Under the pieces are notes generated by a model, which was given only the letters and a program-made list of their open reading frames with translations, was not told where the DNA came from and made no database searches. Of a stretch of 64,000 nucleotides of DNA, positions 1-40,920 are shown in pieces. How positions within the stretch are numbered: the first letter of the stretch is position 1; each line of letters begins with the position of its first letter. Both the position numbers and the translations under genes were made by a program. This DNA comes from Euglena gracilis (Eukaryota): positions 24,192,954-24,256,953 of the forward strand of contig CP154954.1 of the NCBI GenBank assembly GCA_039621445.1, written 5' to 3'.

Positions 1-58
1 GTAAGTGCCAACTGGTGGTACCTGTCGTGCTACCTGTGGCGGGACTTCCACGCCCAGG

Positions 59-511
59 TCACGCATGGTAATGTCCGCCGCGAATCCCGATCTGTCCGAG
101 TCGGTGTAATACACCGAACCGGTCATCGTCGCCTGGGCACTCATACACCACAGGGCTGGAGGGGTGTTCGCGGTGGTCAAAATTTACGGCAGTGGTCATC
201 CACAACGCCTGGGTGAGGTAGTCTGGTGCCGGGTTTGCGCTCATACGCATCACCCGGTTCATCGTCTCCGCCGTGCGGTGGATCATCACACCCGCGTACG
301 GTGGGAGGCGACGAGAGCCTGATGGCTGAGATGACCGCGCTTCCGCGGATATCGGGGTCATCCTGCTACTGCTGCTGGCTTCAGGGTTTCCCTGAGCCGC
401 AGTCCGTGTAGGTGGTTGCGTACCGTATCGATACGCATACTGGTCAGGTGGAGGGTGAGTGGTGGGGTGGTAAGGCGGTACTCCTCCTGGCTCCCTTCCA
501 CCGGGCAGCAT
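59..511 (-). CDS. Pro-rich ORF of unknown function (possibly gag-like), preceded by a polypyrimidine tract/AG
   Basis: 150-aa ATG ORF; the minus strand upstream has a long T/C tract ending TTCTTTCTTTCCGCAG (about 650-602). No recognisable domain. Confidence 0.25.
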   Translation of the reverse strand: MLPGGREPGGVPPYHPTTHPPPDQYAYRYGTQPPTRTAAQGNPEASSSSRMTPISAEARSSQPSGSRRLPPYAGVMIHRTAETMNRVMRMSANPAPDYLTQALWMTTAVNFDHREHPSSPVVYECPGDDDRFGVLHRLGQIGIRGGHYHA

Positions 512-672
512 GATACTGCCCGGGGTCGGTGCGGTGGGATGGTTAGGTTGTTGGTTGTGAGGTGGTAAGGTTAACCGCTTGAGTATTGTTTGCTAAAAAA
601 TCTGCGGAAAGAAAGAATGATAAGAATAGATGATAAAAAGAAAAGAAAACAACATGGGTTTCCCATGCGTTC

Positions 673-1140
673 TCAAAAACTTGTCATGGAAACATCAATG
701 TTATGCTTCTTGTTCCACAGCTTCCAGTTCTGCTGGACAGACCCAACAAAACTGGTTGCTGGCTCCCAAGTGTCCTCCTCGGGCCCATACCCTTTCCAGG
801 GGACCTTCCAAAGGTGCATACCTTTGTCGATTTTGTCATCGATAATTTTATCGACTACAAAGTCGTCGGTCTCAGGTAATCTGGAACGGGGCTGGAAGTG
901 CAGACACGGGATGGGTTTCCCATCCGGCGGTGACAGGTATGGCTTGAAGTCGTCCATATGAACGTCCTCAACACGATTCGGTAATGCAACCTTGTATCGC
1001 CCGCTGGTACCTAGTCTTTCTAGGCTTTCACAGGTGCCGAGCAAAAGGGGGTCCAGTTTGGAAGACTGCATGCGAGTACGGCTATTCCGCACCCACACGC
1101 GGTCACCGGGACTATACACAGGTGACTTGAAATTCTGCAA
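673..1140 (-). pseudogene. Integrase C-terminus with chromodomain
   Basis: SPGDRVWV...GRYKVALP...VHMDDFKPY followed by FVVDKII...WKGYGPEEDTWEP chromodomain motif. Confidence 0.85.
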
Positions 1141-1254
1141 AAACGATTTCCGTTTAGTTGCATGAATATCAGTGACTCGCTTCTGGACTGCAGAACGTAG
1201 ATTTTCTACTTCCGCAAAACAGGTCTCGCAACTGACACTCGTTCGGGCGGGTCT

Positions 1255-2018
1255 CTACGAAGGGACATCCCCTATGGCCGGAGGGTCCCGTCCGAAAACT
1301 AATTTATAGGGGGAGTGAGGTAAAACCAGCCCTGGTAGGGTATTGATATAAAACAAACACCATGGTAGCAATGATATCCAGTTGCTGCGCGAGTCAGCCA
1401 GTGAAAGGCGAAGCATATTCACGACGGATTTCACGGCTGCCTCGGCTCTACCATTGCCTTTGGGTCGGTATATAATGCAAAAATGCTGCTCAATTCCGAG
1501 TAAACCGCACAAAGTGGTGAAAAACCTTGAAAAAACCAAATGGTCTTGATCACTCACGATTTCATTCGGTAAACCGATTAAGCAAATGCATTTCTCCAAA
1601 AATATATTTGCCAAATTTTGGGCAGTCAACCCTGACTTCTGGCGTGGAATGGCTACAATGTACGCACTCAGCCTGCAGACGACAACAAAAACGTAATCGT
1701 AAATTTTGTCGTCCGTTCCTTTGCACGGTTCTAATTCCAGAAAATCCATGCAGAGGGAGGTAAAAATGTCAATGGTACGGGGAAAAAGTCCATCGTACCA
1801 GGGGGGGTGCCTCTGCGGAGTTTTACCGCTTGACAAATTTGACACCGTTGCGCTATTCGTAAACAGCGTGAGTAAAGCACCTTCTCGCTCAGGGTTGTGC
1901 AACACCTGCGGCCCACCAACGAAAGAAGTTTGGGGGCCCCAGGGTGACCGTGGTTGTGAGCACAAAATCGCATCATCAACCAGGTCCTGGGGGATACAAT
2001 ATTTGTAACCCGACTCAT
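1255..2018 (-). pseudogene. Retroviral-type integrase (HHCC zinc finger plus DDE core), frameshifted
   Basis: HNHGHPG...CQIC in ORF 1731-2018; CMDF, IVSDQD, GNGRAEAAVK, SPYKLVFG in ORF 1255-2316. Confidence 0.85.
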
Positions 2019-2407
2019 TGCGAAAAATCAACCGTAAAGGTGAAAGAGTGTAATTGTCCAGCACTTCGCCATTACGAAGTCTGGTGACGATGGTGTCATA
2101 CACCGGATCATTCGCGAAAGAACAGTGGGGAAGGGGACTCCGTGCGCGTAATACGCCGGGGTCCGGACGTGCTTCCACGTCGGCGCCTTCCACGCACTGG
2201 TGCGAACATGAATAGTTGTGAAACGGGAAAAGAATCCAAAAGATTGTCCGCAAAGTCGTTTCGACGTGAGTATTCGTCAGCTTCTTGACTTCCATGAAAA
2301 GTCGTGTCTCCCTCATCCGGGTTCCCAGGGTAATACCAAGGGGCCCGACTGAGCGGATCCGCTACTTTCTGTGTGTGACCAGGGGTATAAATAACCAAAA
2401 GGTTGAA

Positions 2408-2905
2408 TTAACTCAGGAACTCATGCCATCTGCATCGCCTTCCGACAGATGACATGGCCTTGTTCAAATCCTCGGTGTAGCAGTGTTGGAGACTCTCATG
2501 ATCGGTCTTGACGAGGATCTGGACGAGGCTGCTGGCGACCCAGTTGCGAAATTTCTGGAGTATAAGCACCATTGAGTAGGTTTCCTTCTCGCGTATACTC
2601 CACTTGATTTGACCTTCACCGTCGTCGCCCTGTAGCCTTCTGCTGAAGAAAGCCACAGGTCGGAGTTCATTCGCCGCGTTTTGCTGGCTAAGAACTCCGC
2701 CAACAGCGTAATCGCTGCTGTCCACTTCCAGCACATATGGTTTGTACGGGTCCGCGATTTCGAGGACAACATTCTCCAAAAGCAAAACATTGATTTTCTC
2801 AAGGGCCTCACGCATTTGGTCATCCCAAATGACTTTGGTGTTGTCAACAGCCCGATTTTTGAGCTGTTTGGTGAGGGGCACCACGATTTTCGCAAAGTCC
2901 TTCAT
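2408..2905 (-). pseudogene. Ty3/gypsy RT connection/RNase H
   Basis: FAKIVVPLT, VDSSDYAVGGVLSQ, PVAFFSRRL, EKE, TDHESL, RWHEFLS. Confidence 0.9.
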
Positions 2906-2986
2906 ATGTATCGCGTAGTATTGTCAATGGGCTAATCCCAAAAATCCTTTGAGGTGAGTAATCGTTTTGATTACCTCAGGGGTCCA

Positions 2987-4369
2987 TTATTTAATGGTTT
3001 CGAGTTTGCTCGCAGCGGCTTTCCGCTGTCCATTGCTGAGGATGTGGCCACAAAATTTTATAAGCTCGCGAAACAAATGCATTTTCGTGCCTTTCGCGAA
3101 AAGCACATGTTTTTGGAAAGCGGTTAGTACCGCGCAAACATGGTGAAAGTATGTGTCGAGGATATCCTTGCTCGATTTTGCGGATGGTGGTGGTGTTCCC
3201 ACCAGTACATCATCAATGTACACAATGACAATCGGTAAGTCGCGTAAAACCCATTGAATCATGCGTTGAAACATGGCTGGGCCATTCTTAACACCCATGG
3301 GGAGTACCGTCCATTGGGACACACCCTTGGATGTCTCGACTGCCGTGTATGGTTGGGAGTCAGGGTGTAAGTGCATTTGGTGAAAACCGTCCTCCAGATC
3401 GAAAATTGACCACAACCGGTTTTCCGATTGTTTGGTGATCAAATCCTCGATAAGGGGGAGCGGGAAGGGATCATCCCTTGTCTGGGAGTTCAGGTACTGG
3501 TAATCCAGCACCAGTCTCCATTTCTTCTGACCTGAGGGGTCTGGGGGTTTAGGAACAACAAAACCTTGGGATGTCCACTCGCTTTTCGAGGGTACAATCC
3601 ACTTGCGCTGAATAAGCTTCTCAATCATTTCATTGAGAGCTTGTTCGCCTTCTCCCGAACAACGAAAAAATTTTCGGTGCATTGGTTTGGCTCCTTCCTT
3701 CAGCTCGATCTTACAAACACCGAACGGACCGCGTCTCGCGGGGTCGATGTCGCACGCGTATACTGGATTTTCCAGCACACCGTGAAATTCGCGGGTGATC
3801 CACGAACAGAATTCAGCTGACTTAAGATGCTGACCTGCACTCTCGATGACTGCGGAAACCACCACGGTATCCCTGGGGTTACCGAGCTTCCTCGGCACCG
3901 CGAAATCGGACATTCCGAATGCATCGAAGAAACATACGCCAAAAATGATTTCTTGTAAGGGTGGTAATATTTTACCACAAAAATCTTCAAAAATCGGTAC
4001 ATTGGTGGGTAAATCCCACCAATGAAAACACACATACGATAGTTGGGTGAACCATTCCGCTTCCGGAATGATGGGTATGAGAATAACTCCACGGGCTTCA
4101 TCCCGCAGAATTTTCTCAACAACACATTCGAGAAGTTTTTGGGGAGGGTGCATGCATAACACCGTATCACCCCAAAATTTATCAAATGCGTTGGAGTGTT
4201 GTGACCAATGACGTGGCAAACGGGCATGTGCATTGGATGAAAAGGCATCAATTTCCAATGCCAAATCAAAGGAATCAGCCAATGTCGCGATTTTGGAAAA
4301 CCATCGTTCCAAAATGTGATATTGACCAAAACTGAAAGCATTCCATACGCGTTTCACGTATTCATGCAC
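2987..4369 (-). CDS. Dam-like N6-adenine methyltransferase domain fused in frame to gypsy reverse transcriptase
   Basis: N-part IDAFSSNAHARLPRHWS...NAFDKFW...MHPPQKLL..VVEKI....GVILIP..P...W resembles the DIRS MT domain; C-part WRLVLDY, DLEDGFHQ, LPMGVKNGP, YIDD. Confidence 0.8.
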   Translation of the reverse strand: MHEYVKRVWNAFSFGQYHILERWFSKIATLADSFDLALEIDAFSSNAHARLPRHWSQHSNAFDKFWGDTVLCMHPPQKLLECVVEKILRDEARGVILIPIIPEAEWFTQLSYVCFHWWDLPTNVPIFEDFCGKILPPLQEIIFGVCFFDAFGMSDFAVPRKLGNPRDTVVVSAVIESAGQHLKSAEFCSWITREFHGVLENPVYACDIDPARRGPFGVCKIELKEGAKPMHRKFFRCSGEGEQALNEMIEKLIQRKWIVPSKSEWTSQGFVVPKPPDPSGQKKWRLVLDYQYLNSQTRDDPFPLPLIEDLITKQSENRLWSIFDLEDGFHQMHLHPDSQPYTAVETSKGVSQWTVLPMGVKNGPAMFQRMIQWVLRDLPIVIVYIDDVLVGTPPPSAKSSKDILDTYFHHVCAVLTAFQKHVLFAKGTKMHLFRELIKFCGHILSNGQRKAAASKLETIK

Positions 4370-5149
4370 CCGATTTCCGGGCTGGAGTGAAGAAACACAA
4401 TGAATGGATCCACAAACATGCGGATTGTCTTACGCTGCCCCAAGGGTTAATCCCAAGGGACTTTGGACAGGCTGGGGTTTTCCCCATTCCGCATCAAATT
4501 TGTACCAAGTGTAATCGGGATGGTGATTAGGAATGACGCTTTTCGCGTTTCCAAACAACAAGGCTAATCCGCGTTGTTGGAGTACTCGGTGTATCTCCGC
4601 GCATTGCGGGCTACAACCAAGTGTATCATGTGGTGTGGATTCCGTTTTCGGAATTGCGATTAATGTTGGATTTTGAACTAAACATCCACAATCGAAATCC
4701 GATTGGGTGGAAATTCTCCTGCAGTGCACACATTGGTAGGAAGTGTGATGGTGTGACGGGTGTGCCTGTAAGTGGGTGTTGATGGCATTAGCCGGTGTGT
4801 CTCGTACAGGTGTGCCTGGATTCGGCACAACTGGTGGGAAACGGAGTGGTGGTGTAGCTGGGCGACTACTCAACACCGTGATCACTGCAGGCCTTTGGAC
4901 TTTCGTCTTGTAACCTAGTGGAACGGCGGGGGTACCGCTACTCGCTTGCCCTACCTCATTTGGAACGCATGTAGGTGTGTCATTGGGTAGGGGGGAGGCT
5001 TTCTCCGTACCCCGGGTGTGGAAAACGGTTGTTGGTGTGGTGGATAACGGTGTTGCCATTGAGGGTAACGGTGTTTTAAAAGTGGTGGTCGTCGTGGTGG
5101 ATGCCAACAGTGATGGTGGTTTGGGTTGCATTGATGTGTTGGGTGCTGT

Positions 5150-6700
5150 GCGCAAACCGTGGGAGTGGCAATCCACAACCAATCGGTACTGGCGTAAAAA
5201 CGGGTATCCCAAAATTACGTCAGACCCGTGAATTCCGGCCTCGTAACCAAAAATATTGGTGAAGTGTTGCAATTGTGGGGGGGTGTGGGCGCAAGGCGGT
5301 AGACTGGGGGGGGGTAGTGGGTAGTCGGCCGACTAGTCGGCCGACTACCCAATTGGTCCACCGACTAGGCCTAGTCGGTAGCTAGTCGGCGAGACAGGGG
5401 GGGGGGGGGGGGTAGTGGGTAGTCGGCCAACTTGTCGGCCGACTACCCACTCTAATGTACTAACGGGTCAAAACCGCCGACTTTTAAGCCCCCACCCCCC
5501 TCAAATAACAAAATCCCTTCTGTGTTTGCAACATACTCGGGGGCTAAGTCGTTTTTGTGGCTCACTTTGGCATAGGCGGGGGGGGGCTCCGCCCCCCCGC
5601 CCCCCCCCCTTAAAAACAAAAATCCCTTCTGTGTTGGGCACCTTTTTGGGGGGTAAGGTGTTTTTGTGGCTCTCTTTTTGAAAGGGGGGGGGGGGTCCGC
5701 CCCCCCCCCCCCCGCACCCCCCCTCAAAAAACAAAATCCCTTCTGTGTTGGCAACATACTCGGGGGCTAAGTCGTTTTTGTGGCTTACTTTGGCATAGGC
5801 GGGGGGGGGGGGGCTCCGCCCCCCCCGCACCCCCCCCCTCAAGTAACAAAATCCCTTCTATGTTGGCAATAGACTTGGAGGGATAAGACCCTTTTTTTGT
5901 GCAAATTTTGACTTATATTGAAAATTCAATGGGGAGAGGTGTACTTTTGTCAAAAGTGGGGGGGGCGGAGCCCCCCCTCGCCTATGCCAATGTGAGCCAC
6001 AAAAACGACTTAGCCCCCGAGTATGTTGCCAACACAGAAGGGATTTTGTTATTTGAGTCTCGGATTGGGGTGGAGGGGGGAGTTTTCTGCCTCTCGTGAT
6101 GCAGAACGCAGATTGCAGATTGCATTTCTAAAGGATTTTAATGTAATCCCTGTTTCATCATTGGTTTCTTCCCCCTGGCCCAAAATGGACATTTTCCCCC
6201 AATTTCTTTGCATATTCACCCCCGATTGGGGGGTTCTGGAGCCATTTGGGTGGGTTTTGACCGGCTTTGAGCTGATTTAGACAAAAAAATTTTCCCAGGG
6301 GGGGGCTTAAAAGTAGGCGGTTTTGACCCGTTAGTACATTAGAGTGGGTAGTCGGCCGACTAGTCGGCCGACTACCCACTACCCCCCCGCCGACTAGCTA
6401 CCGACCAATTAGTCGGCCGACTAGTCGGCCGACCAATTGGGTAGTCGGCCGACTAGTCGGCCGACTACCCACTACCCCCCCCCCAGTCTACCGTTTGGCA
6501 CTTGGGGTGTGAGTGATGCTTTGGAATGATGGGCAAGAGTATCTCGAGCACACATCCCAAATCACCACCGCACATGGGGGTATTATCCGCGGTTGTAATT
6601 TTGATCTGTTTCTTGGCGCTTACCAAGAAAGGGGTCGGTATCAACCGCAACCGAAAGAGCAGTGCAATGCGGCAACCGAATTAAAATTTTAACTTTGGTG
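5150..6700 (-). pseudogene. Aspartic protease remnant split by a MITE
   Basis: IKITTADNTPM (6465-6650) and DVILGYPFLRQYRLVVDC (ORF 4430-5272) flank the 5297-6493 insertion; catalytic DTG not intact. Confidence 0.6.
5297..6493. mobile_element. Non-autonomous TIR element with palindromic GTCGGCCGAC subterminal clusters, copy 1
   Basis: Termini CGGTAGACTGGGG / CCCCAGTCTACCG; internal 75-100 bp repeats; inverted second copy at 28341-29600; no TSD seen. Confidence 0.85.
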
Positions 6701-6904
6701 GAGAAATTTTGAATGCGGATTTCCGGTTGGACGAGTAATTTCATTGGTGGTACGCAAAGTGAAGGGTCTGGCGGAAATACGTTTGCATGCCAACTTTCCC
6801 ATGAACCCTTTCCTACTTTGCTCAGCATTCAGAGCAGAAATGTGGAGTGGTGGGTAGGGGACCCGAAATAATTCAGGGTACTGACCGTGAAGGCGGATGG
6901 GCAG

Positions 6905-7170
6905 GGGGGGCAAGGTTGATCAGGTCTTACCTCCATCTGTTCATCATGATGACGACAATTCCCGGCCGGGTGACGTTTTCATTCCACGACTTGACAGTGA
7001 TGGCCTGGTTGCGATTGATGTCACCATCCAGCCTGTCCATCCACTCCATGGGTGTGTTACTGCAGGGATCAGTTTCCATCCAACCCTTGAGCATCTTTGT
7101 TCATATTTGCTGATTTTTTGGGGTCTTCTGCCTTCAGGTGTTGTTACGTTTTCACTGAGACGCAGGGGAT
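6905..7170. mobile_element. Relic of a CRE-like RLE endonuclease with internal inversion
   Basis: RPGDVFIPRLDSDGLVAIDVTI on + (about 6960-7030); continuation HPLR...KY...GWKLIP on - (7170-7035). Confidence 0.7.
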
Positions 7171-7185
7171 GAACACAGGAGGCGT

Positions 7186-7310
7186 GAGGACGGACGGACG
7201 GACGGACGGACGGACGGACGGACGGACGGCTGGAGAAAATTCCTTTCATCTGGACGGACGGCTGGACAGCGTGCATTTTGGTCTGGACGGACGGACGACT
7301 AGGTTGGTCT
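7186..7310 (+). repeat. (GACG)n-headed short interspersed repeat
   Basis: (GACG)n then TTCATCTGGACGGACGGCTGGACAG...CTAGGTTGGTCT; related copies at about 20435-20545 (+) and 29950-30093 (-). Confidence 0.75.
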
Positions 7311-7831
7311 TTTTTTTCCCACCAGATTCAAACAGTTTCCTCACAGCTTCACGGTGGGTAGCACAGCTTCACCCAAACCGCGCCCAGGGCCCAGGGAAAT
7401 GTCTCTTTTGGCCCTCGCCACAAGAGGAACCCTCTTGTGACTCCCTGTGCCGCCACAGGTCGCGGGTAGCTTATACTGTGGGTTTAATGTACAAAAGAGT
7501 GTTGTAAGGGTGCGGAGGTTGGTTAGCGGAAGATGAGCAAAGGTCACCTTCAATATATATTGGGCGGGGAGGGGGGCGTTTGTACCTCTTTTGCCACTGG
7601 ATGGCGTGTTTGTGTCGGGTTTTTTGGCTTTTGTTGCGTTTTGCTTCTCTGCGTGTCTATGTGACCCATTGACTTGTCTTTGGCTCGGCGTGTGGCTCGG
7701 CTCAAGGGGTTACTAGGGGTTACTGAGTTGTGTCTTCTTTGCTCATTCTTGTAATCTGACCTTGGGGTGCAAACATAGCTGGTGAGAGTTCAAGGTTGGT
7801 TATTTGGTTGAGAGTTTGGGCTCAAAGGCCT

Positions 7832-8662
7832 TCAGACAGAATACGGTGAGTGGGCGGAAGACAGGGTGATCTCATCTTTGGAAGAATACAAGCTCCAAAC
7901 GAGCTGTCTACTGATTTCTCTGATAAGTGTGAAGGACAGGCCTTGCCAAATGTCTGCTTGTGCGGCCCGCCATTGCCACCCTTCCCGCTGCCCCAGAAGG
8001 GCTTTGAGGATGGTGGCCATCAAGGAGCGCGCTTCTTGTCCCATGCCCCCGTAGCAATCCATGACGAATGGCGTCAACCGCCAGCCCAGTCGTTGGCATG
8101 TTGCATCATATTTGGTATGCTTTTCAGCCTCCTGACGTGTTTGCCATTGTGAAAGGCTTTCTGCACTTCGGAGCGGATGACTTTGCGCAAGTGTGTGGCG
8201 GATTGTCACATCCACTGCAACGGGTCCATCACTGTCCAAGCGAGGAATGAAGATGTCCCCAGGCCGGGAACGGTCATCAGCTCGTTGTTCTTTACGGGCT
8301 GTAAATCCTTCCTTCTGTGTTGTGGTTGTCAGAAAATCTTGGACAGCCCCGTGCCGCCGGGTGATGAAGTTTGATTTGCAGCACACGAGGTGGTGTCCGA
8401 GAAAGTCTGACGGTCCAAAGCATTTGGGACAGAGGTTGGGATCGGATTCCATTGGTGTGAGAGTCATTCCGAGGGACCAACGAAGTGTGCAGCGGAATTC
8501 AGCCGTGGGCAACAGGGTGCGGAGTCCTTGAGATGGTGTCAAAGCGGCCCACGCCATAGCATGCGGTTGGCATTGGCTTGCAAAACGCCAATGCCAAAAG
8601 GTCCATTCAATGTGTCCCGAAGTGTTTTCTGGCGGGCAAGCATGCTCTGCTGGTTCCACCAA
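7832..8662 (-). pseudogene. Copy A zinc knuckle plus restriction-like endonuclease
   Basis: CPKC-x-HLVCC, RRHGAVQD, RPGDIF, VAVDVTI, GGMG; frameshifted from the RT by a small deletion near 8590. Confidence 0.85.
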
Positions 8663-9817
8663 CGTTGTGAATTGTGTGGAGACTGTGCTTGAGGGATCAG
8701 GTTTTTGTCACTGGCCCATTGTGGCAGTGGAGCCATTTGACCAAGATCATTGAGGGCTGTCCGTAAACAATCGTCGGCGTCCTTGGGAAGGATGTCCATG
8801 GCAGCAGGCAGTCCCAATACAGAGGGAGCTCTTCGACAGAAGTCCACCACTTGAGACAATCTGGCAGGCACGCGTTGAAATAGTGGATCCGAGATTCCCA
8901 GTCCACCGCATCTGATGGCCAGGGAGACTTGCAACCATTCTTCTGGGGTGCAAGGGGAGCCGACCATGCCACTGAATGTTTCCCGAATAATTCCCGACAA
9001 CGTCTTGCATGCCGCTGTTGCAGAGGAGATTTTGCAGGCGCGCAAGAGGTCATTCACTTTGCAAGCGGATAAGCAACACCGAAGCAAGGTGAATTGCACA
9101 TGCGATTGAGGTAGGTGCCGAAGTACTGTGCAAGAACGTCGGATGTCTTCAATGCGCTTATTCCAAACTTCTTCACAGAAGCGGTCATCTTGGGGGTGGT
9201 GGACAGGGACCCCCAAAACTTTCAGACCAGAACCAGCAACAAAGGCGGTCAGTGGTATTTGATGTAAGGGGCTATCCTGTGGCGTGCCAGGGGGAATGCA
9301 AGGGACACCTTCTGTTGATGTGAACGCTGGTCCCCACAATCGACATTTTGCAGGGTTCACGGCCAACCCAAGCGTGGCTGCCTCGTGAATAAGAAAGGCA
9401 AGGGCATTGTGCAATTGGGCTGGCGATCCCAGCAGATGGGCATCATCCAAGTACCACCCCTGCCATTCGACCAAAGGTGAGAGGCCCTCACAAAGGTCTT
9501 GCACACCCCAGGCGAAAGCTGCAGGTCCGCATGGGTCGCCTTGTTGAGCTCCCCTCTGGGAAGGCAGACAATGGTTTCCACAATACAGCTTGCTGTGTTG
9601 GGCGTAGCACGAATCCAGCCAAGGGCACACTTCTGGGCATCGTCTACGGATGGATTGCAGGATTTTTTCCCGTGACAAGGAGTTGAAGGCATTTTTGAAA
9701 TCCACTTGAAGCAGCCCCCAGCGATTGTCTCTGTCCGAGTGCAGAGTGTCCACCATCTGTTGGATTCCCATTGCGATCAGTGGACATGCATTCGGCACAC
9801 CAACGCCACATTGTGGA
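8539..9817 (-). pseudogene. Copy A reverse transcriptase core
   Basis: DFKNAFNS, GAQQGDPCGP, WYLDD, LKVLGVP, GGLGI. Confidence 0.9.
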
Positions 9818-11479
9818 GAGCCTCCCGGACCCGGAAAAAGCGTTATTGAGTTGAAAATGAGCGTTTTTCGACCCGCCAGGGCACCTTTTTGGGCCGCCAA
9901 CCCATTGATTTTGGGTCAAAACCGGGTCAAAAAAGTCGAAAAATATCGAAAAAAATTTTTCGCCCAAAACCATGTTTTTGAGCCTCCTGGACCCGGAAAA
10001 CATCAAAGCATTTACCACCATGGGATGACGCATGAGGCATTTGCCAACCAATCGGCGGAGTGTTTCACCTGCTGCGATCGGGCGAGTGTCTTCATCACAC
10101 ACTGTGTGCTCCACAAGGTTTCCAAAAGCATCCTCTTCCATTGCTGTTTGTTTGTTCTGTTTTCGCAGAGGTGTCAACCTGGCGGAGGAAAGAATTGGGG
10201 CCATGCCGGGGTGGACACCGTTTGTAATTGCCCGACAGATGAAGGTATCAAGCACTTCGAGGAGGTCATCTCCACAAGCCCCTGGGTAGTCTCCAACCAT
10301 GGCCTTGAGGTGGTCAGGTCTCAGGCCAGAGGGTCCCGGTGCGGATTCCTTTGGGAACCCGAATATAGCTTTGCGCAAATTTTGTAATCGCTCTTTTGTG
10401 CTTTCCGGGTCCGAAGGAAAGGTAATCGTTTGTGAAGAGTCGGACACTGGGATGCGCGGTGGAGGCTCAGGTGGGTGAAGTTCACGCAGCCTTTGAATTA
10501 CTTTTGGGTCATTGCTGTTCTGAACCCCCTCAGAGGTGAGCTCTCGGCAGGCTTTTGAAATAGCCCACCAACCCCCATTGGCCAAAATCACATTGCTGGG
10601 GTTACGCTATTCTCTGCTCCATGCCCACCATCCCTTCATCCCACTTTTGAGGAAATTTCTTTTGATGACCGCGGCACCCTTGTATACCTGCCTCGTGGAG
10701 CCCTCCTCAATGTCAATCAAACCTACCTGCAATTGTTGAGGCATTTCAACAGGGAACCTGGCTGGGAAACCCTGCACGCCTTGTGGGGCTTCCCCAAAGC
10801 GGTGCTTTGTCCTTTGCAGCGTGGCGGGCGATCGAACTGGGCGATGGTGGGGAGAAAAATTGCATAACGAGCTCGCCTGTATCTCACCCGTCCTGTGTTT
10901 GATTCTTGGTTGGACTCCAGTCTCCCACAAAAGCCACAAGGCAGACAGACAAGGCAAAAAACAGCACTGGCAGCCAAGGCAACTGAAGAACGGTTCCTCT
11001 CCCGCATTGAAGCCTTGTTGGCCACGGGGTCTAGCTGGGGCTGGTGACGATGCTGCTGCCGTTGTTGCCACTGAGTATGAAGAGCTGGCACCCAAAGGGG
11101 GGTTGGAGAAGTTCAGGAAAGGGGTCGCCTGATTTGCTTGCATCCACATGGCCCCAACGTCTGACGGGGGGAAGGGTCCTGGTCCTTGTGTGCCAATTGG
11201 GTTCTCCATGATGACCGTGGAGCACATTGAGGGGAGGCCTTGTTGGCCAAAGAACAATGGACCTGGCAGATTTGGGAACCAAGATCCCCTTTCCAATGGT
11301 GGCAGTGCGGGTGGTGGTGTGGTCGGGGGGATGGAAATTTGTGATGCTGGCGCCATGTCAACGTCCTCACCCGACACCGACGGGGGCTCTGCGGGCGGTG
11401 GTGCTGTAGGAGGGATGGAGATTTGTGATACTGGTGCCATGTCAATATCCTCACCCGAAACAAATGGTGGGTCTGCAGG

Positions 11480-11518
11480 AGGTCCGGGGTTACTTTCAAT
11501 TTCCCCACAGGTCAGCAA
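11480..11518 (-). other. 2A-like motif, variant (LLTCGEIESNPGP)
   Basis: Translation in ORF 10607-11914; D-to-E change in the DxExNPGP core. Confidence 0.75.
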
Positions 11519-11859
11519 AGACCGACCTCGTCCTGCTCCCCCCGATGCTGCCAGGGTAGGCTGCGTGCTGTCTTTTGCAGGAGTGTAAAGCACAAGCACT
11601 TTTCTTTGTTTGGCCCACGATGGGTGGTTTTTTCCTTTCATCGGACAGGGAACCTGGGGGTGGTCAAGTTCATTTTGCTGAGGTGGGGAGGTTGCAGGCA
11701 AGCAGAATCTGGCAGAACTGGCTGGCTGGGGAGCCATTGTTGCAGACCAAAAAGTGGTGCTGTCTGGCAGGGGGGCCACTGTTGCAGTCCAAAATGTGGA
11801 GGAACATGGTTTGCCAGTTTGTCGGGGGCTTTTCAGGCTGAGAGCAAAATTGGTGTCAG

Positions 11860-12780
11860 GGGAGGCCTTTGCAGGCCCATGGCATTTGCAGGCCACTGGG
11901 ACAAAATGCTGCAACAGGTGTCACGGGGGGGCCTTTGCAGGCCCAGGGCCTTTGCAGGCCACTGGGGCAAAATGGTGTTGGAGGGGGGCCTTTGCAGGCC
12001 AAGGGCCTTTGCAGGCCACTGGGGCAAAATGGTGCAACAGACCGAAATGGTGTCACAGGGGGGCCTTTGCAGGCCCAGTGACTTTGCAGGACACTGGGGT
12101 AAAACAGTGTCACTGAGGGGTTGGGGTGTCAATGTCAAGTCAAAACTGCTGCAAAAAGTGTCAACAGATGAAAGGAGTTTCACTTCAGGACACAGGTTTT
12201 CACTGGCACTTTCCAACAAAGCAAACAAAGCAAAAGAGAATGCACAGAGAAGGAATGCAAATAGGTTCCAGGTGGCAGTGGGGGGCTTACAACAGATGTT
12301 GGTGCAGCCACTGGCCCTGAGTCTGGCAATGAAAACCAAAACTGTGAAAAGATGTCTGATGCCTGGTGTGAGATGACAGGGGTAAGGATGGAGGACAATG
12401 TTTGAAAGCAATCTGGGGGGTTGGATGGGGAAGATGTCAGCACCAGAAGGTTTCCCTGCATGCAAATGGAAAGGTTGATGATGGGTGACCTTTGGAGACC
12501 CAAAGAATGGTTGTATGCATGATGGGTTTGCAGTGGTTGGGCATGATAGAAGGGGTGGGTATGCAGTGATTGGGGGGCTGACCATTGGGGGGGGCCTTTG
12601 CAGGCCCAGTGGCTGGGGGGGCCTTTTCAGGCCCATTGGCTGTGGGGGCCTTTGCAGGCCCACTGGCTGGGGGGGCCTTTTCGGCCCAGAAGGGTTGGTG
12701 GGGGCCTTTTCAGGCCCAGTGGCTGGGGGGGCCTTTTCAGGCCCAGAAGGGTTGGTGGGGGCCTTTTCAGGCCCAAAGAA
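11860..12780. repeat. GGGGCCTTT(G/T)CAGGCCC hairpin-unit tandem arrays in the copy A 5' region
   Basis: Many imperfect copies at about 11860-12090 and 12590-12780; equivalent arrays at 17360-18130 in copy B. Confidence 0.85.
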
Positions 12781-13571: not shown

Positions 13572-16500
13572 TCAGACAGAATATGGTGAGTGGGCGGAAG
13601 ACAGGGTGATCTCATCTTTGGAAGAATACAAGCTCCAAACGAGCTGTCTGCTGATTTATCTGATAAGTGTGAAGGACAGGCCTTGCCAAATGTCTGCTTC
13701 TGCGGCGCGCCGTTGCCACCCTTCCCGCTGCCCCAGAAGGGCCTTGAGGAGGGTGGCCATCAAGGAGCGTGCCTCTTGTCCCATGCCCCCGTAGCAGTCC
13801 ATGACGAATGGCATCATCCGCCAGCCCAGGCGTTGGCATGTTGCATCATATTTGGCATGCTTTTCAGCCTCCTGACGTGTTTGCCATTGTGAAAGGCTCT
13901 CTGCACTTCGCAGCGGATGACTTTGCGCAAGTGTGTGGCGGATTGTCACATCCACTGCAACGGGTCCATCACTGTCCAAGCGAGGAATGAAGATATCCCC
14001 AGGCCGTGAACGGTCATCAGCTCGTTATTCTTTACGGGCTGTAAATCCTGCCTTCTGTGTTGTGGTTGTCAGAAAATCTTGGACAGCCCCGTGCCGCCGG
14101 GTGATGAAGTTTGATTTGCAGCAAACGAGGTGGTGTCCAAGAAAATCTGATTGTCCAAAGCATTTGGGACAGAGGTTGGGATCGGATTCTATTGGTGTGA
14201 GAGTCATTCCGAGGGACCAACGAAGTGTGCACCGGAATTCAGCCGTGGGTAACAGGGTGCCGAGTCCTTGAGATGGTGTCAAAGCGGCCCATGCCATAGC
14301 GTGTGGTTGGCATTGGCTTGCGAAGCGTACAGCATCAGGTCCATTCAATGTGTCCCGAAGTGTTTTCTGGCGGGCAAGCATGCTCTGCTGATTCCACCAA
14401 CGTTGTGAATTGTGTGGAGACTGTGCCTGAGAGATCAAGTGTTTGTCAGTGGCCCATTGGGGCAGTGGGGCCATTTGACCAAGTTCATTGAGGGCTGTCC
14501 GCAAACAATCGTCAGCGTCTTTGGGAAGGATGTCCATGGCAGCGGGCAGGCCCAAGACAGAGGCAGCTCTTCGACAGAAGTCCACCACTTGAGACAATCT
14601 GGCAGGCACACGTTGAAATAGTGGATCCGAGATTCCCAGTCCACCGCATCTGATGGCCAGGGAGACTTGCAACCATTCTTCTGGGGTGCAAGGGGAGCCG
14701 ATCATGCTACTGAATGTTTCCCGAATAATTCCCGACAATGTCTTGCATGCCGCTGTTGCAGAGGCTATTTTGCAGGCGCGCAAGAGGTCATTCACTTTGC
14801 AAGCGGATAAACAAAAACGAAGCAAGGTGAATTGCACATGCGATTGAGGTAGGTGCTGAAGTACTGTGCAAGAACGTCGGATGTCTTCAATGCGCTTATT
14901 CCAAACTTCTTCACAGAAGCGGTCATCTTGGGGGTGGTGGACAGGGACCCCCAACACTTTCAACCAGCAAGAAAGGCGGTCAGTGGTATTTGGTGTAAGG
15001 GGCTGTCCTGTGGCGTGCCAGGGGGAATGCAAGGGACACCTTCTGTTGATGTGAACGCTGGTCCCCACAATCGACATTTTGCAGGGTTCACGGCCAACCC
15101 AAGCGTGGCTGCCTCCCGAATCAGAAAGGCAAGGGCATTGTGCAGTTGGGCTGGCGATCCCAGCAGATGGGCGTCATCCAAATACCATCCCTGCCATTCG
15201 ATTAGGGGTGAGAGGCCCTCACAAAGGTCTTGCACACCCCAGGCGAAAGCTGCAGGTCCGCATGGGTCGCCTTGCTGAGCTCCCCTCTGGGAAGGCAGAC
15301 AATGGTTCCCACAATACAGCTTGCTGTGTTGGGCGTAGCACGAATCCAGCCAAGGGCACACTTCTAGGCAGCGTCTACGGATGGATTGCAGGATTTTTTC
15401 TCGTGACAAAGAGTTGAAGGCATTCCTGAAATCCACTTGAAGCAGCCCCCAGCGATTGTCTCTGTCCGAGTGCAGAGTGTCCACCATTTGTTGGATTCCC
15501 ATTGCGATCAGTGGACAAGCATTCGGCACCCCAACGCCACATTGTGGAGGACTCAGTTCTTTCAAAGCGTTTACCACTGTGGGATGACGCATGAGACATT
15601 TGCCAACCAATCGGCGGAGGGTTTCACCTGCTGCGATCGGGCGAGTGTCTTCATCACACACCGTGTGCTCCACAAGGTTACCAAAAGCATCCTCTTCCAT
15701 TGCTGTTTGTTTGTTTTGTTTTCGCAGAGGTGTCAACCTGGCGGAAGAAAGAATTGGGGCCATGCCGGGGTGAACACCGTTTGCAATTGCCTGACAGATG
15801 AAGGTATCAAGCACTTCGAGGAGGTCATCTCCACAAGCCCCTGGGTAGTCTCCAACCATGGCCTTGAGGTGGTCAGGTCTCAGGCCAGAAGGTCCCGGTG
15901 CGGATTCCTTTGGGAACCCGAATATAGCTTTGCGCAGATTTTGCAATCGCTCTTTTGTGCTTTCCGGGTCCGAAGGAAAGGTAATCGTTTGGGAAGAGTC
16001 GGACACTGGGATGCGCGGTGGAGGCTCTGGTGGGTGAAGGTCACACAGCCTTTGAATCACTTTTGGGTCATTGCTGTTCTGAACCCCCTCAGAGGTGAGC
16101 TCTCGGCAGGCTTTTGAGATAGCCCCGTGGCCAACAAGGCTTTCAATGCGGGAGAGGAACCGTTCTTCGGTCGCCTTGGCCGCCAGTGCTGTTTTTTGCC
16201 TTGTCTGTCTGCCCTGTGGCTTTTGTGGGAGACTGGAGTCCAACCAAGAATCAAACACAGGACGGGTGAGATACAGGCGAGCTCGTTCTGCAATCTTTCT
16301 CCCCACCATCGCCCAGTTCGATCGCCCGCCACGCTGCAAAGGACAAAGCACCGCTTTGGGGAAGGCCCACAAGGCGTGCAGGGGTTCCCCGCCGGGTTCC
16401 CTGTTGAAATGCCTTAGCAGTTGCAGGTAGGTTTGATTGACATTGAGGAGGGCTCCACGCGGCAGGTAAACAAGGGTGCCTCGATCATCAAAAGAAATTT

Positions 16501-17458
16501 CCTCGAAAGTGGGATGAAGGGATGGTGGGCATGGAGCAGAGAATGGCGTAACCCCAGAAATGTGATTTTGGCCAATGGGGGTTGGCGGGGGTCTGGCTGG
16601 GGCTGGTGACGGTGCTGCTGCGGTTGTTGCCACTGAGTATGAAGAGCTGACACCCAAAGGGGGGTTGGAGAAGTTCAGGAAAGGCGTCGTCTGATTTGCT
16701 TGCATCCACATGGCCCCAAAATCTGAGGGGGGGAAGGGTCCTGGTCCTTGTGTGCCAATTGGGTTCTCCATGATGACTGTGGAGCACAGTGAGGGGAGGC
16801 CTTGTTGGCCAAAGAACAATGGACCTGGCAGATTTGGAAACCAGGATCCCCTTTCCAATGGTAGCACTGCTGGTGGTGGTGCGGTCGGGGGGATAGAAAT
16901 TTGTGATGCTGGCGCCATGTCAACGTCCTCACCCGACACCGACGGGGGCTCTGCGGGCGGTGGTGCAGAAGGAGGGATGGAGATTTATGATGCTGGCGCC
17001 ATGTCAATATCCTCACCCGACACAAATGGTGGGTCTGTAGGAGGTCCGGGGTTACTTTCAATGTCCCCGCAGGTCAATAAAGACCGACCTCGGCCCGCTC
17101 CCACCGATGCTGCCAGGGTAGGCTGTGTACTATCTTTCGCAGGAGTGTAAGGCAAAAGCACTTTTTTTTGTTTCAGCGGAGAGGGAACCTGGGGGTTGTC
17201 AAGTTCACTTTGCTGAGGGAAGGTTGTAGGCAAGCAGAATCTGGCAGAACTGGCTGGCTGCGGGGCCACTGTTGCAGACCAAAAAGTGGGCGTGCTGTCT
17301 GGCTGGGGGGCCACTGTTGCAGGCCAAAATGTGGAGGAGCATGCTTTGCCAATTTGACAGGGGCCTTTCAGGCTGAGAGCAAAAATGGTGTCAGGGGGGG
17401 GCTTTGCAAGCCCATGGCATTTGCAGGCCACTGGGACAAAATGCTGCAACAGGACCAA
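13572..17458 (-). pseudogene. Copy B polyprotein: 2A, N-terminal region, RT, CCHC, RLE
   Basis: ORFs 16985-17458 and 14960-16939 are in the same frame; APGPSGLRP, RPIAAGETLRR, QQGDP, YLDD; 14025-15077 and 13656-13979 continue it. Confidence 0.88.
17042..17080 (-). other. 2A (StopGo) peptide, canonical (GRGRSLLTCGDIESNPGP)
   Basis: Exact DxExNPG-P core in frame with the downstream RT ORF. Confidence 0.85.
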
Positions 17459-18404
17459 AAGGTGTCACAGGGGGGCCTTTGCAGGCCCAGGGCCTTTGCA
17501 GGCCTCTGGAGCAAAATGGAGTTGGAGGGGGGCCTTTGCAGGCCCAGGGCCTTTGCAGGCCACTGGGACAAAATGGTGCAACAGATCGAAATGGTGTCAC
17601 AGGGGGGCCTTTGCAGGCCCAGTGACTTTGCAGGACACTGGGGTAAAACAGTGTAACTGAAGGGTTGGGGTGGCAAAATGTTTTTCAATGTCAAGTCAAA
17701 ACTGCTGCAAAAAGTGTCACTGAGGGGTTGGGGTGGCAAAATGTTTTTCAATGTCAAGTCAAAACTGCTGCAAAATGTGTCACAGCTTTTGGTGTAACAT
17801 GTGATGTGAAAACTGGGGGTTTGCCACTTCAATTGATCAGAGGTTTGGGATGCAATGCAGAACACAGAAAAGAAGACCTTGGAGCTGAAAGTAGCACTTA
17901 ATGGTTGGCAGAAGGCGGGCCTTTGCAGGCCCAAAGGGGGGGGCCTTTGCAGGCCCAAGATGAGGGGCCTTTGCAGGCCCAAATGGAGGGGCCTTTGCAG
18001 GCCCAAAGACTGGGGGGGCCTTTTCAGGCCCAGTGGCTGGAGGGGCCTTTTCAGGCCCTGTAGCAGGGGGCCTTTTCAGGCCCAGGGCCTTTTCAGGCCA
18101 GTGGTGGTGTTGAGGGGGCCTTTTCAGGCCCAATACAGCCCACAGCAGCATGGTGAAGTTCTGCAGCAGCAGACCAAAGGGGTGAGAAGCCCAAGAACTT
18201 GAGTTCTTCTTTGTCTTGTCTTGAGCTTGTACTTTTGCTTGACTTCTGCTTCTGCCTGCACCAGCAGGACTTCTTCTGCCTGCACCAGCAGGACTTCTTC
18301 TGCCTGCACCAGCAGGACTTGTGAGTAACTTTCGATGATAGTTGAACTCTTGACTTGGATATTTGTCCCCACCAGGGGCTTTCAATTGTCCGCCATGTAT
18401 TATG

Positions 18405-27205: not shown

Positions 27206-28340
27206 CCCGTGACCCCCCGGTGACCCGAGAATCGAGCCTTCAATTTTCATACAATGCATCAACCTTCACCACTTCAGCCTTACTTTTCATTCATCATTTG
27301 ATTTTTGATGTAGGTGGCGGTTTGGTTGCTTTTCATCAATTTTCTGGTTGAAACCATCGGAAATTTACCTTGACATGGTCAAAAAATGGAAAGAAATGCC
27401 AAGATTTGAGGTGAAAAAAATTTCGACCCAAACAATGGCGCTTTTTTGGCGTATGAATTTGACCAAAAAAAATGTCCTATTGGCAAAAGGGGAGATTGCG
27501 GAAGTCCAAAAAGTGGTCATTTTTGGCCATTTTTGGGCCATTTTGACCAAAAAAATGCTTTCTGGTCCGAAAGTGGTCATTTTTGGGTGATTTTTATGTC
27601 CGATATTGGTCATTTTTTTCATTTTTTTTTGAAGGGGAATTTTGTAGGATTTTCTTGACCGTCACATTTTTTTGGGATGCATTTTGGGCCATTTTGAAAA
27701 AACGGCATGGCAAAAAGGGGGGGAGGAAAAAGATGAAATTTTTATGGAAGAAACCCCCCCCAAAAAAAACAGAAAAGAATTGTCCTCACCCCACCTTCCA
27801 TTTGGACTACCACCCCCCCCCCCATATTGTCCCCCCCCCCATATTGTCCCTCGGCCCGGCCGACGAGGGGTTTTTTTGGCTCGGTCAATGAAATTTCCTT
27901 TGGTACCCCCATATTGTCCCCCCCCCATATTGTCCCGGCGGGCCTCCTGGGGAGAGGTCGGTGGGACAATATGGGGGGGGGGGTGGTAAGCCCCTCTTTG
28001 GCACCCAACGCCCAACGCACCTTCACACCCAAAAATGGCCAAGAACCTTGTCCCCTAAAAAGGTGCCAAAAATTGGTGCATTTCCACACCCAAAACAGCA
28101 TTTTTTGGCCATTTCTTCAAAATGGCCATTTGGGAATTTTTTCCTGGGCCCAAAAATCACTGATTTTAGGATGCGTGCCGCCCTGCTTGTGATGGGATGC
28201 AACATCATGGATGCTGCCTCCCAACTACCTCCAAAGTGGCATTCTTCCCCCGTGACCCCCCCCCCCCCATGACCCGCACCACCCCCGATGGCCAATCCCA
28301 ACAAAATGGAGCAGTTTAGCGTCCAAATTAGGACTGTAGA

Positions 28341-29600
28341 CGGTTGACTGGGGGGGGGGGGGTCCTGGGTGGTCGGCCGACCAGTCGGCCGACCACCCAA
28401 TTGGTCGGCCAACTAGGCCTGGTCGGCAGCTAGTCGGCGAGACAGGGGGGGGGGGTACTGGGTTGTCGGCGGATTAGTCGGCCGACCACCCACTCTAATG
28501 TAGTTACGGGCCAGTCTCGCCGACTTTTAAGCCCCCCCCTGAGAAAAAACTTTTGTCCAAATCACCCCAAAACCAGTCAAAACCCACTCAAATGGCTCCA
28601 GAACCCCCCAATCGGGTGTGAATATGCAAAAAACTGGGGGCAAAATGTCCATTTTGGGCCACTTTTGGGAAAAGAACACTTCTCCCCGTTGGATTTTCAA
28701 TGTATAAGTCAAAATTTGCACAAAAAGGACTTAGCCCTCCAAGTATATTGCCAACATAGAAGGGATTTTGTTATTGGGGGGGGGGGGGGGGGGGGGGGGG
28801 GCGGAGCCCCCCCCGCCTATGCCAAAGTGAGCCACAAAAACGACTTAGCCCCCGAGTATGTTGCCAACATAGAAGGGATTTTGTTATTTGAGGGGGGGGG
28901 GCGGGGGGGGGCGGGGCCACCCCCCCCCCGCCTATGCCAAAGTGAGCCACAAAAACGACTTAACCCCGGAGTATGTTGCCAACATAGAAGGGATTTTGTT
29001 ATTTGAGGGGGGTGCGGGGGGGGGGCGGAGACCCCCCCCCCCCTCTATGGCAAAGTGAGCCACAAAAACGACTTAGCCCCCGAGTATGTTGCCAACATAG
29101 AAGGGATTTTGTTATCTGTGCTCGGGTGGGGGTGGAGGGGGGAGTTTTCAGCCTGTCGTGATGCAGAATGCTTGCATTTCTAAAGGATTTTCATGTAATC
29201 CCTGTTTCGTCATTGATTTTTTACCCCTCCGGACCCCATCAAGGGCCCACCAACCCCCCACCGACCAAAGATTTCCATCTGAGGGTGTTCCTGATGGTGT
29301 AAGGCACTTTTTTGGACCCATCTGGACCATTTCCGGGTGGTTTGGACCTGCCACAGACCATTTTTATGACCACCGACTAGCCACCGACTAATTTGCATAC
29401 AATTTTCTTCATAAAAAGTCGGCGAGACTGGCCCGTAACTACATTAGAGTGGGTGGTCGGCCGACTAATCCGCCGACCACCCAGGACCCCCCCCCCCTGT
29501 CTCGCCGACTAGCTGCCGACCGGGCCTAGTCGGCCGACCAGTTGGGTGGTCGGCCGACTAGTCGGCCAACCACCCAGGACCCTCCCCCCCCAGTCTACCG
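28341..29600. mobile_element. Non-autonomous TIR element with GTCGGCCGAC clusters, copy 2 (inverted relative to 5297-6493)
   Basis: Same termini and internal GCCTATGCCAAAGTGAGCCACAAAAACGAC repeats. Confidence 0.85.
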
Positions 29601-30203
29601 CCTAGAGCCCCAGATTAGAAACAAACTCCTTCCAATAAGTGGGTCTCAGCGATTTCTGCTTGACAATCATCTGCAACAGCGCCTCAGCTGCTGGCTACTC
29701 CTCATAATAGACTTCAGCAATTTTTTGTCAGTGATCTGCAGCAGAGAAAAAAAGATCATTCCCTGACAGCATTGTTTGGCAAACCTTTGTCACCAGAGAA
29801 GAGCTTGATGCCGAGAGAAGTCAACGTCTTCTGGTATCTTAGCACAATTAGAAACAAGCAAACCCTGCACCGCACGAAGGGGAAAATGTGCCGTCTGGGT
29901 CAGTTGACGGCTTGTGTGTAGTAAAAGGCGAGACCTTTCGCGATTTTGAGACCAACCTAGCCGTCCGTCCGTCCAGACCAAAATGCACGGCCGAAACCCT
30001 GTCCAGCCGTCCGTCCAGATGTAAGGAATTTTCTCTAGCCGTCCGTCCATCCGTCCGTCCGTCCGTCCGTCCGTCCGTCCGTCCGTCCGTCCGCACAGCT
30101 CCAATGGCTCGGAGAGGGTGGGTTTTGCCACATTTTCAGCCACATTCAATGCCCTCTTTCAAAAAGAAGTGCCACTGTCTCGCTGCCCTTTGGCGGCGAA
30201 AAA

Positions 30204-39810: not shown

Positions 39811-40690
<880 letters not shown>

Positions 40691-40691
<1 letters not shown>

Positions 40692-40920
40692 ACACTTCCA
40701 AAAGTGTGATTTCAGAGGAAGCGGTGCCAGAGTTCAAAACGCCTTGTATTTTCGAATTGTTTGCTGAGAAGTGTTTACTGATCATCAAGAAGAGTTCACG
40801 AATCGAGGGCCACAAAACGACCAACGTCTCCATCAAGACTCTGAAGGTGGTGGCGGTGGATCCTGACAGAATTGAATTGACATATGATAGCAAATGCCGA
40901 CTCTACCGGCTGGAAAATCG
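40691..40920 (+). CDS. Probable internal exon(s), possibly a PH-like fold
   Basis: Open protein-like frame [17 protein letters not shown]...[26 protein letters not shown]; boundaries unresolved. Confidence 0.45.

Follow-up and report, generated by a model that had tools for sequence, protein, structure and literature searches.

A Dam-like methyltransferase-fold domain upstream of the reverse transcriptase in a chromovirus family of Euglena gracilis

Introduction

Can a domain resembling DNA adenine methyltransferases be a genuine, inherited part of a Ty3/gypsy-type retrotransposon, and could it write N6-methyladenine (6mA)? This question is raised by a locus in a stretch of 64,000 nucleotides of the Euglena gracilis genome (NCBI GenBank assembly GCA_039621445.1, contig CP154954.1, positions 24,192,954 to 24,256,953 of the forward strand), hereafter the window, in which position 1 is the first letter. 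A first-pass annotation, made from the letters alone, had placed a Dam-like methyltransferase (MT) domain between the protease and the reverse transcriptase (RT) of a gypsy chromovirus pol, and had proposed that a potential DNA writer is paired there with a chromatin reader. We report here that the locus is very probably a dead, 5'-truncated copy of a high-copy chromovirus with an inherited Dam-like homologue, and that this domain is likely to be non-catalytic or weakly catalytic.

DIRS elements have their MT domain downstream of the RT and RNase H and use a tyrosine recombinase. The MT domain of DIRS1-type retrotransposons was reportedly treated by Goodwin and Poulter. In adenine-N6 methyltransferases, motif IV supplies an Asn or Asp that forms a hydrogen bond with the target amino group, and an aromatic residue that stacks on the flipped adenine.

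Chromodomain-bearing retrotransposons with both a Dam-like domain and long terminal repeats (DAM-LTRs) are described in a preprint by Fernandez-Moreno et al. (May 2026; bioRxiv 10.64898/2026.05.21.726589). According to that text, which reports a screen for Dam-bearing transposable elements (DAM-TEs) with hmmsearch at E<=1e-5 and names five lineages, chromodomain LTR elements are the most abundant class, with 30.9% of DAM-TEs. The same text gives the pocket triplet as Asn-Pro-Pro in almost all DAMs, and describes eukaryotic DAMs as lacking, relative to prokaryotic Dam, the first of the catalytic subdomains as well as the initial half of the target-recognition region. It proposes that DAMs borne by transposable elements (TEs) deposit 6mA on the intermediates of replication or enlist the host enzyme AMT1, and that 6mA gives new insertions a mark of permissive chromatin.

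Results

Architecture of pol and its inheritance

The Dam-like domain is encoded on the minus strand in an open reading frame (ORF) of 480 amino acids (2987-4429) that contains EIDAFSSNAHARLPRHWSQHSNAFDKFWGDTVLCMHPPQKLLECVVEKILRDEARGVILIPIIPEAEWF; the RVT_1 match covers residues 293-463 of this ORF and is in the same frame as the Dam-like domain upstream of it. Along the minus strand (~673-6825), pol is ordered as protease, Cys4 motif, Dam-like MT domain, RT, RNase H, DDE integrase, SH3 and chromodomain (Table 1). The protease, RT, RNase H, DDE integrase order of chromoviruses was recovered by Pfam searches of successive minus-strand ORFs (RVT_1, RT_RNaseH and rve) and by a collinear alignment to the relative P0153. 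Judged by these sequence matches, the element is a Ty3/gypsy chromovirus with a Dam-like domain upstream of the RT, and the position given to the domain by the first-pass annotation, between the protease and the RT of an element with a DDE integrase and a chromodomain, agrees with both the Pfam matches and the alignment to P0153. Assignment to the DIRS elements was rejected, as an rve integrase is present and no Phage_integrase (tyrosine recombinase) match was found with Pfam in the window ORFs scanned, nor in the 24 + 3 relatives scanned.

The same arrangement recurs in relatives. Dam lies upstream of RVT_1 in eight polyproteins (P0010, P0021, P0024, P0039, P0057, P0087, P0153 and P0154), of which P0153 and P0154 are uninterrupted. 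P0153 (1677 amino acids) comprises Dam, RT, RNase H, an integrase zinc finger, rve, SH3 and Chromo; P0154 (1991 amino acids) has this order without an SH3 match and ends in the chromodomain. The window copy is 53% identical to P0153 over 1108 columns (5281-2111) and 54% identical over 493 columns (2154-691). By domain, identity reaches 78% in the RT and 77% in RNase H, 44% in the MT-like domain and 33% in the protease tail and linker.

The abundance of the family was assessed in two DNA runs of one organism. Contig pieces at least 85% like positions 2900-4500 numbered 13721 in run X1 and 8997 in run X2, and the mean depth in X1, a summed depth that is not equal to copy number, came to ~1.04 million in the bins of the MT part (3926-4411) and likewise in those of the RT part (3008-3709). 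Since the contig pieces are abundant and the depth is even over MT and RT, the family must be very abundant and its copies must include the domain. The MT-like domain therefore belongs to this family, and to a wider metagenomic clade, as an integral and inherited component; the eight polyproteins and the even depth leave no place for the one-off chimera that the first-pass annotation had kept in view.

A Cys4 motif, C-x2-C-x9-[FY]-D-C-x-C, read here as CVHCRRISTQSDFDCGC, precedes the Dam-like match by ~100-160 residues. It was present in 5 of the 39 relatives with at least 120 amino acids upstream of the Dam match, all five belonging to the clade of the window element, and possibly represents a zinc-binding module that accompanies the MT-like domain.

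Dam-like domains were also seen at other positions in retroelement polyproteins: between RNase H and the integrase in P0108 (1905 amino acids), and between rve and RVT_2, a copia-like order, in P0132 (1114 amino acids).

Homology and predicted fold of the domain

A word-indexed protein search with ORF residues 1-190 yielded 110 candidates, none of them at E<=1e-3; the family was then found by an exhaustive phmmer search of 1.84 billion representatives, which returned 286 proteins at E<=1e-3 (74 of them at <=1e-10, 5 at <=1e-30). P0002 ranked first, with E 1.1e-38 and 50% identity. Pfam Dam was matched at E<=0.01 by 22 of the 24 relatives scanned (9 of the 24 above the curated cutoff) and by 50 of the 58 members of an alignment of relatives, A1 (best 2.6e-12), while the PHROG profile phrog_111, 'DNA methyltransferase', was matched by 52 of these 58 (best 9e-19). 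The match of the window copy itself spans profile positions 22-105 of the 169 of PF05869. Near-invariant residues are kept in the window domain (D61, F63, W86, P95, P96, K106 and P119), and we take the conserved D61-x-F63 to be motif I. Two further searches gave negative results: no second MT domain was found in the window by tblastn (best non-self E 0.65), and a single-protein search of the JGI metagenomes, with 30 patterns matched, returned no relative.

The AlphaFold2 model, built on A1, is an alpha/beta domain with a mean pLDDT (predicted local distance difference test) of 89.8 and a pTM (predicted template modelling score) of 0.80, in which a strand at residues 90-93 is followed by the H-P-P loop. 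Comparison of the model with BFVD gave 13 matches at E<=1e-3, the named ones all being adenine or DNA methyltransferases of phages (E 8.8e-8 to 8.6e-5). As modelled, the domain has a class-I methyltransferase fold that is nearest to adenine-N6 methyltransferases. Homology and fold together show that the domain is a true homologue of the MT domain of DIRS retrotransposons and of phage Dam (PF05869). The layout recognised by eye in the first-pass annotation, DIRS-type and like that of phage Dam, was thus borne out by the fold and, through the relatives, by phmmer, Pfam Dam and phrog_111. The extent proposed there, 3990-4270 (residues 54-147), falls inside the domain and is too short, the full domain running from 4378 to 3941 (residues 18-163).

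Motif IV in the family and its relatives

The window copy reads MHPPQ at 4153-4139, that is, C-M-H-P-P-Q where most relatives have W-[IML]-N-P-P-F; the [DN]-P-P-[YFW] form of motif IV is absent from this copy. This was established by aligning the window domain with 110 of the 150 listed relatives, those with a match spanning query residues <=60 to >=125, and the non-canonical motif noted by the first-pass annotation was confirmed. Among the 111 sequences the triplet is N-P-P in 67, H-P-P in 12 (including the window), C-P-P in 9 and another in 23; the triplet is followed by F in 67 and by an aromatic residue (F, Y or W) in 79. Asn is missing from 30 of the 110 relatives, being replaced by His in 15 and by Cys in 10.

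In a FastTree tree of the rows that had 90 or more aligned residues, made after masking the column of the Asn and read as indicative only, no support values having been read, 10 His-bearing sequences fall in one H-P-P clade (e.g., P0054, P0064 and P0088) and the C-P-P sequences group together (e.g., P0019, P0025 and P0032). The clade of the window element (P0002-P0011, P0014 and P0036) has mostly N-P-P-[IVL], with scattered H-P-P, H-P-M, Y-P-P, N-P-H and N-P-T.

The two fragments closest to the window copy both carry His (LWMHPPQK in P0112 and LRMHPPPQ in P0012), which suggests that His is characteristic of the family. The codon for Cys92 is a Trp codon in nearly all matching contigs of the DNA runs; this difference stands among the 40 best-supported of 153 difference rows, and none at the His codon does. 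W-M-H-P-P-Q/P is therefore probably the family's own motif, as far as these sequences tell, with only Cys92 private to this copy. The first-pass annotation had asked for a family consensus of the motif, and H-P-P-Q/P is our estimate of it; its proposal that this copy may be inactive was right in that the motif is altered, and missed that the alteration is probably common to the closest relatives and not private. As the Asn and the aromatic residue of motif IV are both replaced, methyl transfer is doubtful.

State of the window copy

The window copy is dead: it has five in-frame stops (4430-4432, 2987-2989, 2924-2926, 2408-2410 and 1255-1257), at least three frameshifts (one near 2111-2154 and two in the integrase zinc-finger region, ~1767-2030), a nested terminal inverted repeat (TIR) element and a truncated 5' end, likeness to P0153 stopping at ~6825, next to sequence resembling a long interspersed nuclear element (LINE). 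In two RNA runs (~5-6% of each run), 15 reads (X21) and 66 reads (X24) were found at >=85% likeness and none at >=99%. There is thus no sign of transcription of the window copy, the RNA reads being low-level and from the family only, and the copy itself has no function now.

The nested TIR element is ~1.2 kb long, with 97% complementarity between its two arms (5306-5368 and 6421-6483). Another copy, 82-86% like this one, occupies 28338-29610. These elements have long terminal inverted repeats of GGGTAGTCGGCCGACTA units and internal tandem repeats of 109-115 bp with long runs of G and C.

Table 1. Features of the chromovirus copy in the window (positions counted from the first letter of the window)
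Feature	Position	Strand	Basis or remark
Dam-like (DIRS-type) methyltransferase-fold domain	3941-4378	-	residues 18-163 (~145 residues) of ORF 2987-4429
Pfam Dam core match	4043-4282	-	residues 50-129 of ORF 2987-4429
Motif-IV position after strand 4, C-M-H-P-P-Q	4139-4156	-	alignment of 110 relatives and the window; model
Cys4 motif	4682-4732	-	linker upstream of the MT-like domain
Aspartic protease, C-terminal part (..GSDVILGYPFL..)	5105-5281	-	tblastn to P0153 residues 124-182
Protease region, N-terminal part, in two frames	6504-6825	-	tblastn to P0153: residues 16-64 at 6825-6679, 67-124 at 6677-6504
Nested non-autonomous TIR element, splitting the protease	5282-6503	.	inverted repeat arms; P0153 residue 124 aligns on both sides
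Reverse transcriptase	3041-3553	-	Pfam RVT_1 E 1.1e-22; 78% identity to P0153
RNase H	2411-2827	-	Pfam RT_RNaseH_2 E 8.8e-23; RT_RNaseH E 2.6e-21
DDE integrase core	1462-1755	-	Pfam rve E 3.2e-8, 34.2 bits (cutoff 32.6)
HHCC zinc finger of the integrase, in a different frame from rve	~1767-2030	-	upstream of the DDE core
Tf2-1-like SH3, integrase C-terminus	952-1107	-	Pfam SH3_Tf2-1 E 3.4e-4, below cutoff; domain also in P0153
Chromodomain, C-terminal end of pol	754-861	-	Pfam Chromo E 1.7e-9, 37.9 bits (cutoff 25.1); aligns to the P0153 chromodomain
Natural stop of pol, just after the chromodomain	673-675	-	

Neighbouring sequences

Scrambled fragments of further copies of the chromovirus family lie at 30211-31133 (plus strand) and 37564-37712, none of them with the MT domain; the part with the integrase tail and chromodomain shares 83-92% identity with 648-1126, and a piece close to the RT shares 81% with 3703-3856. 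A Pfam scan of 110 further ORFs of the window matched only two LINE-type RTs and two zinc fingers. Rfam had no match anywhere in the 64 kb, a spliced-leader motif of dinoflagellates was absent (0 matches), and the protein atlas returned eukaryotic clusters only. The two LINE-like elements, at 7832-11920 and 14963-17464 on the minus strand (RVT_1 E 1.7e-11 and 6.3e-11), have upstream ORFs with 84-bp tandem repeats and with 2A-like 'NPGP' peptides, GEIESNPGP at 11480-11506 and GDIESNPGP at 17042-17065. Long microsatellites are present at 39813-40692, (TATATG) x147, and at 45022-45594, (AGTAC) x109.

Discussion

The canonical version of such a domain would be translated within the Pol polyprotein and, with the use of S-adenosylmethionine (SAM), would methylate N6 of adenine on the replication intermediates of the element. 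In the family described here, the most likely state is one of weak or no catalysis, because the Asn and the aromatic residue of N-P-P-[FYW] are replaced (H-P-P-Q/P). We propose that the fold has been preserved to serve binding or scaffolding, and we lean towards a non-catalytic role of the domain in this family. The data suggest that the fold has been retained under relaxed catalytic constraint in this clade. Because the motif is probably common to the closest relatives, the idea of a potential DNA writer is weakened for the whole family and not only for this copy, and the domain is probably not an active DNA writer. The pairing of writer and reader put forward by the first-pass annotation therefore stands as a co-occurrence of two domains; as a pairing it is not new, being the subject treated by Fernandez-Moreno et al. 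(bioRxiv 10.64898/2026.05.21.726589), and its writer half loses ground throughout the family.

Several results weigh against a dead chromovirus copy with an inherited, likely inactive Dam-like homologue. The window copy matches Pfam Dam PF05869 with E 0.019 and 15.1 bits when the whole ORF is used, and with E 0.0032 and 17.6 bits when the domain is used alone, in both cases under the curated cutoff of 28.1 bits; its membership in the Dam family therefore rests on transitive homology. The check by Pfam and structure suggested in the first-pass annotation gave a confident methyltransferase-fold model and, for the copy alone, a Pfam score below cutoff. Sequence searches against the PDB chains, with the protein and with the profile, gave 0 matches at E<=10, and Foldseek found no PDB match at E<=1e-3, the best being human PCIF1 at 2.7e-3. 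With VIA-align, run against 48,161 chains, PCIF1 again came first, with a root-mean-square deviation of 2.6 over 121 residues and a Z of 9.9 that only modestly exceeds the best Z of 7-8 often obtained when a model lacks a clear match; next came an archaeal RNA methyltransferase (Z 9.1), METTL5 (8.4), T4 Dam (7.9) and E. coli Dam (7.2). Since such best values of 7-8 are common in unmatched models, the PDB evidence alone is modest, and the methyltransferase claim is carried by the BFVD and profile evidence, not by the PDB matches. As for the element, no flanking pair of direct repeats that could be LTRs was found in 1-12000 or in the rest of the window, where ~670 bases lie beyond the 3' stop and the 5' end is truncated near 6830. 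As for catalysis, the inactivity of the family is deduced from the motif only and stays a presumption, and a minority of Asn-bearing copies may exist in the family. Moreover, His is present in the intact 1677-amino-acid ORF P0153, and H-P-P is maintained in a clade of 10 relatives, so that His may be tolerated or functional. In addition, no gag was found in the window searches.

The prominence of PCIF1 (CAPAM), the cap-specific adenosine N6-methyltransferase, among solved structures bears on an alternative in which the domain is a PCIF1-type RNA module that binds the element's own transcript, N6-methylates adenosine in it, or mimics host PCIF1. The same proposal was made for DIRS1 by Iyer, Zhang and Aravind, who place the DIRS1 MT domains in the PCIF1 clade, judge them inactive, and suggest that they perhaps bind the template transcript or mimic PCIF1 (PMC4738411). 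Besides the first rank of PCIF1 with both Foldseek and VIA-align, this alternative can draw on giant-virus PCIF1-like proteins among the BFVD matches and on the Pfam family PCIF1_WW. The former matched at E 1.6e-3 to 5e-2, however, far weaker than the phage Dam models (E 1e-7 to 1e-5), and the latter was touched by 2 of the 58 A1 members, against the 50 that match Pfam Dam; nor was a WW domain found in the Pfam scan of the window ORFs. Among the PDB matches listed, no chain is titled as a phage Dam of the PF05869 kind, and the top rank of PCIF1 may therefore mean only that it is the nearest solved relative. We regard a PCIF1-type module as unlikely.

Slightly less likely still, in our judgement, is that the domain of this family is an active DNA N6-adenine methyltransferase despite the His, marking complementary DNA or RNA:DNA intermediates with 6mA, with integration steered by the chromodomain; this is the model of writer and reader common to the first-pass annotation and to Fernandez-Moreno et al. 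In its favour, neither the fold nor the remaining near-invariant residues have been lost, both a very high-copy family and intact ORFs retain the domain, H-P-P is fixed in the separate clade of 10 relatives, and Fernandez-Moreno et al. report that 6mA is enriched on DAM-LTR insertions in three species (bioRxiv 10.64898/2026.05.21.726589). Against this, both the hydrogen-bonding Asn and the stacking aromatic residue, in the roles generally assigned to them, are replaced, and the domain is much less conserved between the window copy and P0153 (44% identity) than the RT and RNase H (77-78%). The same text also reports that eukaryotic DAMs were without activity in dam-minus E. coli, where they gave no gain of 6mA, and the verdict of Iyer et al. 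on the DIRS1 MT domains points the same way (PMC4738411).

Chance resemblance, or a local chimera made by a DIRS fragment nested in one gypsy copy, could appeal to the sub-threshold Pfam score of the copy and to a window full of nested repeats, but is ruled out for practical purposes by hundreds of significant relatives, the same order in intact ORFs, one continuous frame aligned to P0153 from protease to RNase H, a depth that is equal across MT and RT in both DNA runs, and the lack of a tyrosine recombinase match in the ORFs scanned.

We return to the favoured reading, an inherited Dam-like homologue that is likely non- or weakly catalytic. On a bolder view, less likely than not, a high-copy family with His, together with the H-P-P and C-P-P clades, would mean that the domain is retained for something other than adenine methylation, possibly binding or recruitment, e.g., of SAM, nucleic acid or the host 6mA machinery. 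If the loss of Asn holds, models in which elements write their own 6mA would need a non-catalytic alternative. The locus is an independent example, from raw sequence, of the capture of a Dam-like domain by chromoviruses, and it calls for caution, as 30 of 110 relatives and apparently a whole high-copy family are without the catalytic Asn. The natural N-P-P, H-P-P and C-P-P versions offer a ready comparison for biochemical tests.

How does this element compare with known systems? The kind of element is already known, since chromodomain-bearing DAM-LTRs make up 30.9% of the DAM-TEs in the preprint cited above (bioRxiv 10.64898/2026.05.21.726589). Like them, it has a Ty3/gypsy-type pol with a DIRS-derived Dam-like domain and a chromodomain: a single ORF holds the Dam-like domain and RVT_1, with rve and Chromo downstream. 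It differs from them in two respects, and in both something new may lie. The frequent, clade-wise loss of Asn may be new, the window family reading His-Pro-Pro-Gln/Pro where the text of the preprint has Asn-Pro-Pro in almost all DAMs. The lineage may also be new, as a divergent one below the threshold of that screen: the window copy, at E 0.003-0.019, misses the E<=1e-5 given in that text, a rough comparison as E-values depend on search size, and E<=1e-5 against Pfam Dam was reached by 2 of the 10 scanned members of its clade. That all this adds up to a further divergent lineage of DAM-LTR chromoviruses, largely missed at E<=1e-5, having the pol order described here and a motif IV drifted to N-P-P-[IVL] or H-P-P, and keeping the domain for a role other than methylation, we put forward tentatively, the odds being rather against the whole of it.

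The MT domain of DIRS1 shares with the window domain its family and the layout D-x-F-A-S ... W ... N-P-P-F ... K ... P-x-W, whereas the window element has a DDE integrase and a chromodomain and carries the domain upstream of the RT. Phage Dam (PF05869/phrog_111) has the same fold and order of motifs and is the best match in BFVD and among profiles; in comparison, the window domain is shorter, is embedded in a polyprotein and has its catalytic Asn replaced. PCIF1/CAPAM is the best solved-structure match to the window domain, from which it is set apart by the WW domain, lacking in the Pfam scan of the window ORFs, and by the relatives, which match Dam far oftener by sequence. Finally, retrotransposons that carry DNMT domains, as described by de Mendoza et al. 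(2018; PMC5890265), likewise have a pol with a captured domain of DNA methyltransferase type; theirs are C5-cytosine methyltransferases, whereas the fold found here is of the adenine-N6 type.

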